Virus record (IMG/VR): IMGVR_UViG_3300029742_000017
Strand: one strand, 5' to 3'
From: a virus
DNA length: 33,399 bases
This document shows, one piece after another, positions 7,870 through 23,402 of this stretch. The number at the start of each line of letters is the position of its first letter. Position 1 is the stretch's first letter. The translations under genes were made by a program, and so were the position numbers. The notes below the pieces were generated by a model that did no database searches, had not been told where the DNA came from, and saw only the letters and a list, made by a program, of their open reading frames with translations.

Positions 7870-9535
7870 ATATGCCAGCTGGTGCCTGGAAGCTGATAAT
7901 CGAAAAGTGCCCAAATACGTTAAACTGCAGGCGGCGGACTGGATCAAGATTGCAGACGGAGAGGATGAAGCGGCCATCGTGGACGAGGAAAGCTTTGAAA
8001 AGATATGCAATCTGCTGAGACTGATGATCCATCCGGATCTAAAAGTCACCATGTACGAAGGACTGGAGGATTATGCGTGGTTTTTCATCACGGCGACACT
8101 GTGTACAAAGCATAAAGACAATAGGAATGTTCGTTTCTACACGACAGCAGTTCTGGAAATCGCAAGAAAGAATTTTAAGACGTTCAACAGCGCAGTGATT
8201 TTCATTATCCTGCTACTGACTGAACCAGAATTCTCGAGATTCTTTTCTGTGGCGCCGGATTTATCCCTTTCGTCAGAGTTGAAACTGGCGGTCAGGAAAA
8301 TCATAAAATCAAGTCCTGCACTCATGGATGAAGAAGAGCCTGCATTCAAAATACTTCGCAGTGAAATTATCTGCCAGCTGAATGAGAATACCTACACGCC
8401 TCTGGCATATGGTAAAGACAACATGGACGGGAAGCAGGCGAACGCATTCCTGGCTGATGAAGCGGGAGCACTGGACGAGTATCCGGTAGAAGCGATGAGA
8501 TCGTCCCAGATCATGCTGGAAAATAAACTGGGGATCATTATCAGCACTCAGTATCCGAATGACAATAATGTCATGACGGATGAAATAGATATTGCAAAGA
8601 AAACCCTGGACAAACTGCTGGAGGATCGGACGACGTTCGCTCTTCTGTACGAACCGGATGAGGAATTTCAGCAGGGGGATGAATGGAAGAACAACGATCT
8701 GTGCATATACCAGAGCAACCCGGTAACAGTAGATCACGAGCGGGTGTTCGAGGATCTCGTAAAGAAGCGGCAGATGGCCGTTCTTTACGAAAATAAACGC
8801 GAAAATTATCTTTGCAAGCACAATAACATCAAGTATAAAGGTTTGGGCGTCGAGGGCTATATCGATATCCAGAAAGTGCGACGCTGCAGGACTGAAAAGA
8901 ATAAAGAATTCTGGAGAGGGAAACGTGTCTGGATCGGGCTGGACCTTTCAGAATCAGATGATAACACGGCTGCCGTAATGGGGACAGAGTTTGAGAATGA
9001 AATTTATGTACAGGCTTTTGGATTCACACCGGAGGATCGGATCGAGATCAAAAGTCACAAGGAGCGTGTTGATTATAAACGGCTGATCCGAAATGGAGAT
9101 TGTTTCGCCTGTGGTGATGAAGTTATAGATTACCTGCAGGTCGGACATTTTATAGCGGAAAAGCTTAGAGAAGAATATGGAGTAGAAATACAGCAAGTGG
9201 GATATGACCGATGGAACGCACTGGCGACGATCCAGAGTCTTGAAGCGGACGGTATCGAATGCGTGGAGATAAGGCAGCACAGCTCGGTACTCCATGCACC
9301 GACCAAATGGACCAGGGAACTCATACTAAAAAGACAGCTAAAGTATTTCGAAAATCAAATGCTGGAGATCAATTTTCAAAATGCACGTTGCACAGAAGAT
9401 ACCAATAAAAACAAGTATGTGAATAAGAAAAAGTCGACCGGGAAAGTGGATATGGTCGTAGCACTGCTGAACATGATGTATCTGATTCAGCAGCATAAGA
9501 TCAACGGAGACGATTTTGTAGTTCAGATAGCATAG
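7844..9535 (+). CDS. terL: Terminase large subunit (Terminase_1-like)
   Basis: Length, position, Walker-A-like IARKNFKT, Walker-B-like FLADEAGAL, nuclease-domain GLDLSESDDNTAAV; GTG start 9 nt after GGAGG. Confidence 0.85.
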   Translation: MIKQSKAYKYASWCLEADNRKVPKYVKLQAADWIKIADGEDEAAIVDEESFEKICNLLRLMIHPDLKVTMYEGLEDYAWFFITATLCTKHKDNRNVRFYTTAVLEIARKNFKTFNSAVIFIILLLTEPEFSRFFSVAPDLSLSSELKLAVRKIIKSSPALMDEEEPAFKILRSEIICQLNENTYTPLAYGKDNMDGKQANAFLADEAGALDEYPVEAMRSSQIMLENKLGIIISTQYPNDNNVMTDEIDIAKKTLDKLLEDRTTFALLYEPDEEFQQGDEWKNNDLCIYQSNPVTVDHERVFEDLVKKRQMAVLYENKRENYLCKHNNIKYKGLGVEGYIDIQKVRRCRTEKNKEFWRGKRVWIGLDLSESDDNTAAVMGTEFENEIYVQAFGFTPEDRIEIKSHKERVDYKRLIRNGDCFACGDEVIDYLQVGHFIAEKLREEYGVEIQQVGYDRWNALATIQSLEADGIECVEIRQHSSVLHAPTKWTRELILKRQLKYFENQMLEINFQNARCTEDTNKNKYVNKKKSTGKVDMVVALLNMMYLIQQHKINGDDFVVQIA

Positions 9536-9545
9536 GAGGAGAACA

Positions 9546-10757
9546 AGGGTTTTATTTCGAAGAAAGCGAGCAGAACCAGAAGAAAATACAGTGGATGAAA
9601 ACGCAGTAGCAGAACCGCTACTGCGCGCATGGCTTTCGGGGGAAAACATGACGCGTGCGAAAGCTATGCAGATTCCGTATGTTGCCGGAGCGATCAATGA
9701 GATTGCGAAAACAGTGGCCAATATACCGATCAGGCTCTACCGAAAGGAAGGAAAAAAGGTAATCGAGATAGCTGACGACCCACGGGTATTTTTGCTGAAC
9801 GAAGAGACGGGAGACACACTGGACGCCAACCAGATGAAGCAGGCAGTGGTTCGGGATTACTACCTTGGCCGGGGCGGATATATATACGTCAACTGGGACG
9901 GGCTAGATGTGGAATCGCTCCATTACGTTTTTAGTGAGTATGTGGCGATCGCACCGAATACCGATGTGATTTTCAAAGATTATGCAATCCTGATACAGGG
10001 ACGGACATATTTTCCTGATCAGTTCATCCGTGTATTGCGAAATACAGATAACGGAATGCAAGGAAACAGTATCGTGGATCAGAACAGTATGGCGCTGAAT
10101 GTGGGATACAGTACTCTGGAGTACGAAAAAGGCTTAGTGAAGACGGGTGGAAACAAAAAAGGATTCGTCAAATCGGCGAGGAAGCTGTCACGAGACGCTA
10201 TTGATGCGCTGAAAAATGCGTGGAAAAGACTCTACCAAAACAACACGGAAAATGTAGTGATCCTGAATGAAGGTCTGGAATTTCAGGAAGCCTCGAACAC
10301 GTCCGTAGAAATGCAGATGAATGAAAATAAAAAGACGAACGGAGAAGAGTTTCGCAGATTACTGGGGATTCCGGATGATCTGGGAGATGAAGCGGGCGAT
10401 AAAGCTTTTATAAAATACTGCATAAACACCTTTATGGGCGAGTTTATGACGGCACTGAATCGGGCGCTTTTGCTTGAATCAGAAAAAGGCACATACTACT
10501 TCGCTCCGGATATGTCAGAGCTGACCAAAGGCGATATAGACAAGCGATATGAAGCGTATAAAGTTGCTGCAGACACTGGATGGCTGCAGCTTGATGAAAT
10601 ACGGGCAATCGAAAATAGAGAGCCGCTTGGAATTGATATGATCAAGTTAGGTCTTCAGGATGTTCTCTATAATCCAAAGACGTCAGAAATTTATATTCCA
10701 AATATGAACAAAAGCTATAAGATCAAGGAAGGAGGTTCACAAGAAGGGCAACAGTAA
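9546..10757 (+). CDS. Portal protein (HK97 family), proposed AGG start
   Basis: Portal-like sequence and position. GGAGG 9535-9539, then an in-frame AAGG at 9545-9548. The first canonical start (GTG 9591) has no SD and would remove the family-typical N-terminus (x)VLFRRKRAEPEE. Confidence 0.8.
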   Translation, partial: RVLFRRKRAEPEENTVDENAVAEPLLRAWLSGENMTRAKAMQIPYVAGAINEIAKTVANIPIRLYRKEGKKVIEIADDPRVFLLNEETGDTLDANQMKQAVVRDYYLGRGGYIYVNWDGLDVESLHYVFSEYVAIAPNTDVIFKDYAILIQGRTYFPDQFIRVLRNTDNGMQGNSIVDQNSMALNVGYSTLEYEKGLVKTGGNKKGFVKSARKLSRDAIDALKNAWKRLYQNNTENVVILNEGLEFQEASNTSVEMQMNENKKTNGEEFRRLLGIPDDLGDEAGDKAFIKYCINTFMGEFMTALNRALLLESEKGTYYFAPDMSELTKGDIDKRYEAYKVAADTGWLQLDEIRAIENREPLGIDMIKLGLQDVLYNPKTSEIYIPNMNKSYKIKEGGSQEGQQ

Positions 10758-10792
10758 AACTAAAAGGAGACCCTGGTGGAAAACAATCTGTT

Positions 10793-22351: not shown

Positions 22352-22383
22352 CTATAAATACATTGTAGGAGAAAGGAGCAAAC

Positions 22384-22668
22384 ATGAAAATCAACTTTAA
22401 ACTCAGACTTAAAAACAAAGTTACCTTAGTAGCTTTAGTAGCCGTTATAGTTCCATTTATTTATCAGGTACTTGGAATCTTTGATATTGTACCGAAGATC
22501 AGCGAAGGAGATGTAGAACAGTTCTTGGGACTGTTGATCAATTTCCTGGCGATCCTCGGCGTTGTCGCGGATCCAACTACAGCAGGAATGAAAGATACCG
22601 ATTTAGCTATGGCATACAATAAACCGAGAAAAGAAACAGATGTCTATCCAGACGAGGAGGTAATGTAA
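22384..22668 (+). CDS. Holin (phi LC3-family-like)
   Basis: MKINFKLRLKNKVTLVALVAVIVPFIYQVLGIF... two TM segments, small size, immediately upstream of the endolysin. Confidence 0.75.
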   Translation: MKINFKLRLKNKVTLVALVAVIVPFIYQVLGIFDIVPKISEGDVEQFLGLLINFLAILGVVADPTTAGMKDTDLAMAYNKPRKETDVYPDEEVM

Positions 22669-23402
22669 GGAGTTTTTCGCCAAGACTTAATGCTCCGGCG
22701 GCGAGCAATAAATATTGGATACATACATCCGGCGGCGGACTTAACAGCTGCATCAGAGTAAGTGGAAAGTCTGTTTTGCCTAACTGTGTTGGATACGCAT
22801 GGGGGCGTGCATATGAGATGCTGGGCAAAGCACCGAAGTTATCGCGCGCTAATGCAGAAACCTGGTACGCGCATAAGGACGGTTACTCCCGGGGGAAAAC
22901 ACCGAAGCTCGGCGCGATCGTTGTCTGGGCGAAAGGTAAAGTCGGTAATAGCAAAGATGGAGCCGGTCATGTAGCCGTAGTGGAGCAGATCCACTCTAAC
23001 GGGTCCTTTACAGTTTCCCAGTCCGGATATACTGGCAAGAAACGGTTCTGGACCAGTACAATCCCGAAGTCTGGATACCTGAAAGGATACACCTTCCTGG
23101 GATTCATTTACTTGCCGATATCAACAGGTAGCAGCTATTCAACGTCCTCTGGTAGCATCAAAGTAGGCGGTACTTACACTCTGCGGGCAAACATGAAGGT
23201 GCGTACGGGTCCAGGTACCGGCTACCGCTGGAAAAAAAGATCCGAGCTGACGGCTATGGCTAGAGCGTACTCCCAGAACCAGACAAACGCCGTGCTGAAT
23301 TTGGGAACGCGAGTAACCTGCCTGCAAATCACAGGAAACTGGATGAAGATTCCTTCGGGTTGGATCTGTATCAGATCAGGCGGTGCAGTATATATTTCGT
23401 AG
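22668..23402 (+). CDS. Endolysin: N-terminal CHAP-type cysteine peptidase/amidase plus C-terminal SH3b-like domain, proposed AGG start
   Basis: GAGGAGG 22654-22660, then AGG 22668 overlapping the holin TAA (TAAGG). The extension (x)SFSPRLNAPAASNKYWIHTSGGGLNSCI is the typical start of this endolysin type. The first canonical start (TTG 22776) sits 2 codons before the catalytic NCVGYAWGR Cys. Confidence 0.8.
   Translation, partial: RSFSPRLNAPAASNKYWIHTSGGGLNSCIRVSGKSVLPNCVGYAWGRAYEMLGKAPKLSRANAETWYAHKDGYSRGKTPKLGAIVVWAKGKVGNSKDGAGHVAVVEQIHSNGSFTVSQSGYTGKKRFWTSTIPKSGYLKGYTFLGFIYLPISTGSSYSTSSGSIKVGGTYTLRANMKVRTGPGTGYRWKKRSELTAMARAYSQNQTNAVLNLGTRVTCLQITGNWMKIPSGWICIRSGGAVYIS

Follow-up and report, generated by a model that had tools for sequence, protein, structure and literature searches.

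A 33,399-nucleotide stretch of viral DNA (IMG/VR record IMGVR_UViG_3300029742_000017), hereafter the window, was analyzed and corresponds to a temperate siphovirus-like genome of about 33.4 kb. Very probably, to judge from its sequence, this phage encodes a second initiator transfer RNA (tRNA) in which the anticodon has changed from CAU to CCU, and a subset of its late virion and lysis genes has been rewritten to start with AGG in place of AUG.

AGG start codons in the late genes

All strong Shine-Dalgarno (SD) sequences on the + strand of the window were listed. Exactly eight lay at a gene boundary with no ATG, GTG or TTG at start distance and were followed by A-AGG opening a long open reading frame (ORF), and each of these eight AGG codons was within 0-75 nucleotides (nt) of an in-frame upstream stop. 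Gene functions were assigned using PHROGs and Pfam. The tRNA and the eight genes are as follows:

6661..6734, + strand: initiator-type tRNA, anticodon CCU (ARAGORN; Rfam RF00005, 49.9 bits)
9534..10757, + strand: portal gene; SD AGGAGG 9534-9539, 6-nt spacer, AGG 9546-9548
10730..11371, + strand: prohead protease gene (S78); SD AGGAGG 10730-10735, 9-nt spacer, AGG 10745-10747
11357..12534, + strand: major capsid gene; SD GGAGG 11357-11361, 9-nt spacer, AGG 11371-11373
12860..13190, + strand: head-tail adaptor Ad1 gene; SD GAGGTG 12860-12865, 7-nt spacer, AGG 12873-12875
14225..14777, + strand: major tail gene; SD AAGGAGG 14225-14231, 6-nt spacer, AGG 14238-14240
15312..18081, + strand: tape measure gene; SD AGGAGG 15312-15317, 7-nt spacer, AGG 15325-15327
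19896..20598, + strand: CBM_5_12-domain tail protein gene; SD AAGGAG 19896-19901, 10-nt spacer, AGG 19912-19914
22654..23402, + strand: CHAP endolysin gene (Pfam CHAP); SD GAGGAGG 22654-22660, 7-nt spacer, AGG 22668-22670

Five of these sites (9546, 11371, 14238, 15325 and 22668) had been proposed in a first-pass annotation made from the sequence alone, and their coordinates, SDs and spacings were as it had given them. Two sites that it had called probable, 12873 (GAGGTG-7-AGG) and 19912 (AAGGAG-10-AGG), were upheld. Its list of late genes with canonical starts was correct for terS, terL, Dit and holin and wrong for the protease, which is an eighth AGG gene (10745, AGGAGG-9-AGG). The portal and major tail assignments were supported by PHROG matches of 6e-59 and 9e-47, respectively, the latter beginning at residue 2; in the major tail gene, the nearest canonical codon with SD support lies 63 codons past the AGG. 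The AGG codons of the capsid, CBM_5_12 and endolysin genes overlapped an upstream stop codon (TAAGG), namely that of the protease in the case of the capsid and that of the holin in the case of the endolysin, and the tape measure AGG at 15325 directly followed an in-frame TAA. The least supported of the eight was 19912, with its 10-nt spacing and with homologue evidence from the near-identical locus L089 and a PHROG profile aligning from residue 3.

AGG starts were confined to the late module (8/23 late genes versus 0/32 other genes, p=4e-4), where many genes, among them terS, terL, holin, tail terminator and Dit, retained ATG, GTG or TTG. The base preceding the start codon was A at 8/8 AGG starts compared with 14/47 canonical starts in the window (p=6e-5). 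Two further AGG codons were rejected as starts: AGG 174 belongs to the SD of ATG 186, and AGG 29565 had a weak SD and C at -1.

Position of the N-termini in homologous proteins

Relatives identified through TerL (L002-L013, 62-69% identity) do not carry the CCU tRNA, and these relatives have ATG or GTG at, or adjoining, the codon homologous to the window AGG. In the adaptor, relatives begin MKVSEVT, with ATG or GTG exactly at the AGG codon, and the window reads xKVSELT. The tape measure N-terminus is MADRIKGITVEIGGD in relatives (MADRIKGITVE start) compared with xAGRIKGITIELDGD in the window, and PHROG tape measure profiles placed profile position 2 on window residue 2. Similarly, the major tail protein is MADKVKY...VHYA in relatives and xPKVKF...VHYA in the window, the Met1 of relatives was aligned with AGG in both capsid and portal, and the protease of the tRNA-less relatives begins MRIEIR within one codon of AGG. 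Endolysin homologues of 56-83% identity begin M[SG]FSPRLSAP and match window xSFSPRLNAP column for column. The alignments of endolysin, tape measure, adaptor, major tail, capsid, protease and portal therefore agree with the earlier proposal that AGG occupies the Met1 position of homologues. In near-identical public assemblies the portal had been called at 388-390 amino acids and the endolysin at 208-214, compared with full AGG-started lengths of 403 and 244 amino acids, and the adaptor gene had been missed.

With respect to endolysin homologues, P0051, P0056 and P0060 were 332-334-amino-acid proteins in which holin (PF04531) and CHAP domains occur together; they represent either genuine fusions of holin and endolysin or gene-calling errors where the two genes meet.

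Identity elements of the phage tRNA

The tRNA at 6661-6734 was the sole tRNA detected in the window by ARAGORN and Rfam, and the existence of a phage tRNA(CCU), which the first-pass annotation had asserted, was confirmed by both. ARAGORN labels it tRNA-Arg. The minimum-free-energy fold was a cloverleaf in which base 1 is unpaired, the A1xA72 apposition being flagged by Rfam as non-standard, and the acceptor stem carried G2:C71, C3:G70, G4:C69, A73 and an encoded CCA. Positions 2-6 and 67-73 (GCGGG...CCCGCA-A, then CCA) were identical to E. coli tRNAfMet, the sequence of which was found in four copies per genome across 5,426 E. coli genomes. The anticodon stem contained A29:U41, G30:C40 and U31.G39, and the anticodon loop was CUCCUUA, with U37, compared with CUCAUAA in tRNAfMet. 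U37 is unusual for any tRNA.

Bacterial tRNAfMet thus shares with the phage tRNA the unpaired 1:72, G2:C71, C3:G70, G4:C69, A73 and G30:C40, and the related tRNAs of loci L020 and L223 also have the D arm and T loop of tRNAfMet. The phage tRNA differs in having CCU rather than CAU, U37 rather than A37, U11:A24 (in the window) and one or two of the three anticodon-stem G:C pairs; methionine identity has presumably been lost. E. coli elongator tRNA-Arg(CCU), encoded by argW, likewise has the CCU anticodon, C35/U36 and A73, and differs in having G1:C72, A20 and A37; in the phage tRNA, 1:72 is unpaired, A20 is missing and position 37 is U. An unpaired 1:72 is also an anti-determinant for EF-Tu. 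The major formyltransferase determinant is the unpaired 1-72, with A73, G2-C71, C3-G70 and G4-C69 as minor ones (PMC9976931), and among the three consecutive G:C pairs of the initiator anticodon stem (the 3GC motif) G30:C40 is essential and sufficient in E. coli (PMC5389676). Judged by these elements, the window tRNA is of the initiator type and not an elongator tRNA-Arg, and because it carries initiator rather than elongator identity elements, the idea of AGG starts is mechanistically credible.

Internal AGG codons

Genes of the window contained 75 internal AGG codons. Of the homologue cells aligned with them, 71% contained R or K, compared with 69% for other Arg codons, and none contained M; AGG 11656 of the capsid is the R of AYLRGT. 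The earlier statement that internal AGG still means Arg was borne out by these alignments. Translation with table 11 gave no internal stops in any window gene. The eight genes that start with AGG had an internal AGG density about one third that of the other genes (3.4 and 9.4 per 1000 codons, respectively; p=0.0017), possibly through a codon bias linked to expression or because internal initiation is avoided.

AGG starts and the tRNA in close relatives

Portal homologues of 63-99% identity (L089-L092, L094-L096) were taken with 10-kb flanks. The CCU tRNA was immediately upstream of HNH in every portal-homologue locus long enough to include it, L093 (2.3 kb) being too short. Loci L089-L092 and L094-L096 had AGG at portal, protease, major tail and tape measure genes, and usually at the adaptor. 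The protease AGG was kept in L001, L089, L092 and L094-L096, and that of major tail and tape measure in L092 and L094-L096. The capsid AGG was kept in L001 and L089 despite nearby substitutions and was also present in L095, while the capsid of L092, L094 and L096 had ATG with a longer N-terminus; the adaptor had AGG in L092, L094 and L096 and ATG in L095. As individual genes have one codon in some relatives and the other in others, exchange between AGG and ATG takes place in the tRNA-bearing background. The outcome was that anticipated by the first-pass annotation if the tRNA and the AGG codons belong together: tRNA-less L002-L013 use ATG at these genes, and tRNA-bearing L001, L089-L092 and L094-L096 share AGG.

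The tRNAs of L092 and L094-L096 were found through portal homology and not through an acceptor-stem pattern, and all had G2:C71, C3:G70 and A73; among the tRNAs of the portal relatives, 1:72 was AxA, GxA, UxU or U:A. The tRNAs of L090 and L091 (7070-7143) differed from the window tRNA at 8 positions, several being compensatory stem changes and one being G20>A20, which creates an ArgRS (arginyl-tRNA synthetase) determinant. As the portals of these loci are 99% identical to that of the window, the tRNA seems to change quickly in comparison with the structural genes.

At the equivalent position before the packaging genes, L006 (4694-4769), L007 and L012 (8711-8786) carried an elongator tRNA-Ile(UAU), which suggests a conserved tRNA slot upstream of the packaging genes. 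The possibility that this tRNA is an AUA initiator was rejected, since the acceptor stem is fully paired (G1.U72 wobble) and the portals of these loci start with ATG.

Distribution across IMG/VR

Pattern scans of IMG/VR found the initiator-type CCU tRNA in unrelated phages, with at least 129 loci and at least 47 distinct tRNAs. The pattern that defined the 47-tRNA set left positions 1, 2, 3, 30 and 72 free and fixed U37 and A73. Among the 47 tRNAs listed, 1:72 was unpaired in 45 (AxA 21, CxA 14, CxU 6, GxA 3 and UxU 1, the other 2 being U:A), G2 was present in 46, and C3 and G30 in all 47; the 29:41 pair was GC (28) or AU (19) and the 31:39 pair U.G (29) or C:G (18). In an alignment of 16 family sequences the cloverleaf was 94% paired with compensatory changes in 16/21 pairs, 1:72 was unpaired in 15/16, G4:C69 was present in 15/16, and G2:C71, C3:G70 and G30:C40 were invariant. 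When position 37 was left free in the scan, U37 was found in all genuine tRNAs except that of L019 (A37). Among phage CCU tRNAs with A37, 1:72 was paired in 78/88.

Start codons across loci were classified using a simple SD-anchored heuristic with one call per ORF, for ORFs of at least 100 codons; contexts in the family counts were de-duplicated, and close relatives remain among the loci. The at least 129 initiator-type loci gave 490 canonical, 135 AGG (non-redundant) and 188 other starts. TerL relatives without the tRNA gave 130 canonical, 2 AGG and 48 other, phage loci with CAU initiator-like tRNAs gave 105 canonical, 8 AGG and 116 other, and 84 loci with elongator-type CCU tRNAs (1:72 paired, A37) gave 302 canonical, 26 AGG and 490 other. 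The enrichment of AGG relative to other codons in initiator-type compared with elongator-type loci was significant (p=9e-40), the elongator-type loci being at background. For SD-anchored ORFs with no canonical codon, CCU-tRNA loci gave 43 AGG versus 37 other and tRNA-less TerL relatives 2 versus 48 (p=9e-10). A count of every codon near an SD was discarded since it was confounded by codons flanking real starts (AGA 31 versus AGG 41).

Among the matches listed, 131/135 AGG starts were on the tRNA strand, 113 downstream of the tRNA and 18 upstream, compared with 176 downstream and 281 upstream for canonical starts (p=3e-23). The recognisable AGG-start proteins elsewhere were portals, proteases, major tails, capsids, adaptors, terS and tape measure proteins. 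In L015, which has an unrelated terminase and capsid, three genes had A-AGG starts: terS, the major capsid gene, whose first ATG lies 77 codons further on, and one other.

Other unusual tRNAs were encountered in these scans. L048 (reverse-complement position 924) has an initiator-like tRNA with a CAC anticodon, cognate to GUG, and L076 (position 9494) one with a UUU anticodon that would read AAA. Both loci are short, and the two tRNAs share an unpaired 1:72, G2:C71, C3:G70 and U37 and may be further retargeted initiators. L018 (1682-2712) and L029 (6608-7638) contain a tRNA cluster with an odd 68-nt CCU/U37 tRNA (A1xA72, U2xC71) beside a UCA-anticodon tRNA (opal suppressor, labelled 'SeC') and a tRNA with a 4-nt anticodon (gaat) according to ARAGORN; this may be a phage with several recodings. 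An apparent class of initiator-like tRNAs with a TCA anticodon was dismissed, these being ordinary CAU tRNAs with the loop UUCAUAA.

U37 and the base preceding AGG

Höllerer and Jeschek (PMC10018350) showed for E. coli that base 37 of tRNAfMet pairs with the mRNA base at -1 and that an initiator with A37U prefers A there. With U37 tRNAs, A(-1) was present at 103/135 AGG starts among the matches listed, compared with 1/7 with A37 initiator-like CCU tRNAs (L019, L223, L268 and L281; p=0.0015). These data fit a model in which U37 would form a fourth base pair with A(-1). In addition, at least 26 distinct phage CAU initiator-like tRNAs with U37 (loop CUCAUUA; L038-L084) were found, where bacterial tRNAfMet has A37. 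At loci with these CAU U37 tRNAs, A(-1) was present at 62% of SD-anchored ATG starts versus 27% in TerL controls, a comparison that base composition may confound.

Genome context

The window is organized as an early/replication region, a late module on the + strand at approximately 6.7-23.8 kb that runs from HNH, terS and terL through to the endolysin, and a - strand lysogeny module with a serine recombinase. Relatives of TerL and the endolysin were found in Oscillospiraceae, Clostridia and Lentihominibacter metagenome-assembled genomes, so the host is known approximately. Megablast against INPHARED phages gave no match for 17.6 kb of the window. Two features lie upstream of the tRNA:

6236-6544: gene for a sigma-factor region-4-like regulator, upstream of the tRNA leader
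6550..6655, + strand: intergenic leader before the tRNA, a candidate late promoter or processing signal

Within this leader, the promoter scan gave a sigma-70-like site, TTAACA-16-TAGAAT at 6550-6577 (+), such sites being no more numerous than in shuffled sequence. A strong inverted repeat, GACACAAGGAtCTCC...GGAGgTCCTTGTGTC at approximately 6616-6655 (+), was read from the sequence directly 5' of the tRNA.

Directly after the endolysin, a 114-amino-acid ORF (23412-23753, +) gave a sub-threshold Pfam match to IPP transferase (E 3e-4, 20.9 bits versus a cut-off of 23.6), the MiaA family that modifies tRNA A37; in PHROGs it matched only a family of unknown function, and the IPP transferase match is probably due to chance. 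An 86-amino-acid ORF (12704-12964) overlaps the AGG-started adaptor (12873-13190) by 92 nt in a different frame; its PHROG family is approximately 70 amino acids long and covers residues 1-58.

Proposed mechanism

Because the tRNA gene is directly upstream of HNH-terS-terL, the tRNA is probably made together with the late transcript, as its first product. The acceptor stem would direct formyltransferase, binding of IF2 and entry into the P site, and would keep the tRNA off EF-Tu. A strong SD would position the 30S subunit, CCU would pair cognately with AGG and so satisfy IF3 proofreading, and a fourth pair could form between U37 and the A immediately before the codon (AAGG). AGG sites would be used inefficiently by the host initiator (CAU), and as the phage tRNA would be unable to enter elongation, AGG is proposed to act as a start only behind an SD and to be read as Arg internally. 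For charging, formylation and initiation at AGG by the phage tRNA, we infer these steps from the known biology of initiators and from initiators with mutant anticodons made in the laboratory.

Several observations weigh against this proposal. All of the support for it is inferred from sequence. The full 3GC motif (three G:C pairs at 29-31:39-41) is absent from the window tRNA, as is the minor formylation determinant R11:Y24, and 2/47 of the family tRNAs listed have a U1:A72 pair. MetRS is expected to reject a CCU anticodon, and A20, the main ArgRS determinant, is missing from the window tRNA (G20; D loop AAUGGGA) and from most family members; charging could therefore be inefficient. The amino acid that the tRNA carries is uncertain on account of the missing A20, and is probably Arg, through C35, U36, A73, G2:C71 and C3:G70. 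The preference for A(-1) is not absolute, the tape measure gene having G(-1) in L092, L094 and L095. The comparative counts depend on the simple SD-anchored heuristic, which gave approximately 5% false positives in controls, and their p-values overstate independence since some loci are closely related. Finally, with the tRNA at the head of the late operon, a translational lock would seem in part to duplicate transcriptional control.

Alternative explanations

Candidate purposes for such a system are a gate or threshold for late proteins, a safeguard against leaky translation in lysogens, and a private channel robust to attack on host tRNAfMet. A simple timing lock seems to be argued against by the position of the tRNA, which would add little timing beyond that of the late promoter. 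The same initiator mechanism may instead serve late translation when the host initiator is limiting or attacked, by tRNAfMet-cleaving toxins or defence nucleases, or may serve to provide a non-Met N-terminus. We regard this as possible, if doubtful. The co-location of the tRNA with the late operon, where it adds little temporal control, is in its favour, as are the many phages that carry CAU initiator-like tRNAs with the unusual U37; the published proposal that loop mutations let phage tRNAs escape anticodon-loop nucleases (PMC10264068) also counts for it. Against it, many late genes (terS, terL, holin, tail terminator, Dit) keep ATG, GTG or TTG, and the phage therefore still depends on the host initiator.

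It is improbable that the tRNA is an ordinary elongator tRNA-Arg that supplements codons, with AGG weakly read by host tRNAfMet through a middle-position mismatch and expression being low or regulated. Codon supplementation is the usual explanation for phage tRNAs, and both the 75 internal AGG codons and the ARAGORN label would agree with it. However, the tRNA has an unpaired 1:72, U37, no A20 and the formyltransferase determinants, and AGG starts are not enriched at loci whose CCU tRNA is truly of the elongator type. No AGG starts were seen at the homologous genes of tRNA-less relatives, in which SD-anchored counts gave 2 AGG versus 48 other. Capsid and major tail are, moreover, generally the most abundant virion proteins, for which near-background mismatched initiation is implausible.

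Less probable again is that AGG is not a start and that the next canonical codon is used in each gene (GTG 9591, GTG 10793, TTG 11428, GTG 12879, TTG 14427, TTG 15379, TTG 19942 and TTG 22776). Gene callers do annotate these shorter ORFs in dozens of assemblies, but it is the AGG codons that are preceded by strong SDs, the downstream codons having none. Use of the downstream codons would remove conserved N-terminal residues that align from the Met1 of homologues, with a loss of 63 residues from the major tail protein, would leave the catalytic Cys of the endolysin at residue 4, and would create intergenic gaps of 50-230 nt at these genes only. The same pattern is found wherever the tRNA occurs.

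A sequencing, assembly or base-modification artefact turning ATG into AGG, for which the common A-AGG context of all eight sites could suggest a motif-specific error, has a negligible chance of being correct, given that the same codons occur in dozens of independent assemblies (JGI, ENA, Logan, NCBI) and in diverged relatives with surrounding substitutions, that AATG is unaltered elsewhere in the window, canonical starts included, and that an error would not co-vary with a tRNA bearing the AGG-complementary anticodon.

Comparison with known systems and significance

To our knowledge, every natural case of non-AUG initiation has been explained by mismatch tolerance of the single CAU initiator. 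The closest natural analogue of the proposed initiation at AGG is the recoding of stop codons in late genes of gut phages by phage suppressor tRNAs. As in that case, a phage tRNA would change the meaning of one codon and late structural and lysis genes are affected. In suppressor recoding, however, a stop within the frame is read as sense during elongation, whereas here a sense codon would become a start at initiation and there are no in-frame stops. Engineered anticodon-mutant initiators (amber CUA and other non-AUG) resemble the phage system in combining an initiator scaffold of changed anticodon with a complementary non-AUG codon behind an SD, orthogonal to both the AUG initiator and elongation; the sequences of the phage loci likewise combine a non-CAU initiator scaffold with cognate non-AUG codons at SD-defined starts. 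In contrast to these laboratory constructs, the phage system is natural and virus-encoded, would use a sense codon, AGG, and has evolved together with a set of late genes in numerous phage lineages. Engineered non-AUG initiators, one application being phage biocontainment based on UAG start codons, are described in bioRxiv 10.1101/2024.07.29.605542, PMC11744186 and bioRxiv 10.1101/2021.05.25.445580, and AGG/CCU was not among the pairs tested in PMC11744186. The literature searched, with incomplete coverage, yielded engineered non-AUG initiators only and no natural precedent for a retargeted second initiator, and for this reason we rate the system as a new kind of natural system.

We consider it likely, at somewhat lower confidence than the existence of the retargeted tRNA and its AGG genes, that phages of Clostridia-like hosts possess a natural orthogonal initiation system in which an initiator retargeted from AUG to AGG and stabilised by U37:A(-1) probably gives a non-Met (formyl-arginine?) N-terminus, and that this is the first natural dedicated second initiator and sense-to-start reassignment. 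The CAC and UUU tRNAs hint that the principle may extend to other codons.

For annotation, these results mean that major structural genes of a widespread gut-type phage group are systematically shortened or overlooked by gene callers, and that 'tRNA-Arg' annotations in phage genomes can hide initiators. If the proposal is true, the dedicated second initiator with its different anticodon would represent a new way of departing from the genetic code, at initiation rather than at elongation or termination. IF3 proofreading, the 3GC rule, the 37:(-1) fourth pair and non-Met N-termini would become testable in a natural system, and synthetic biology and phage biocontainment would gain a natural orthogonal pair of initiator and start codon.

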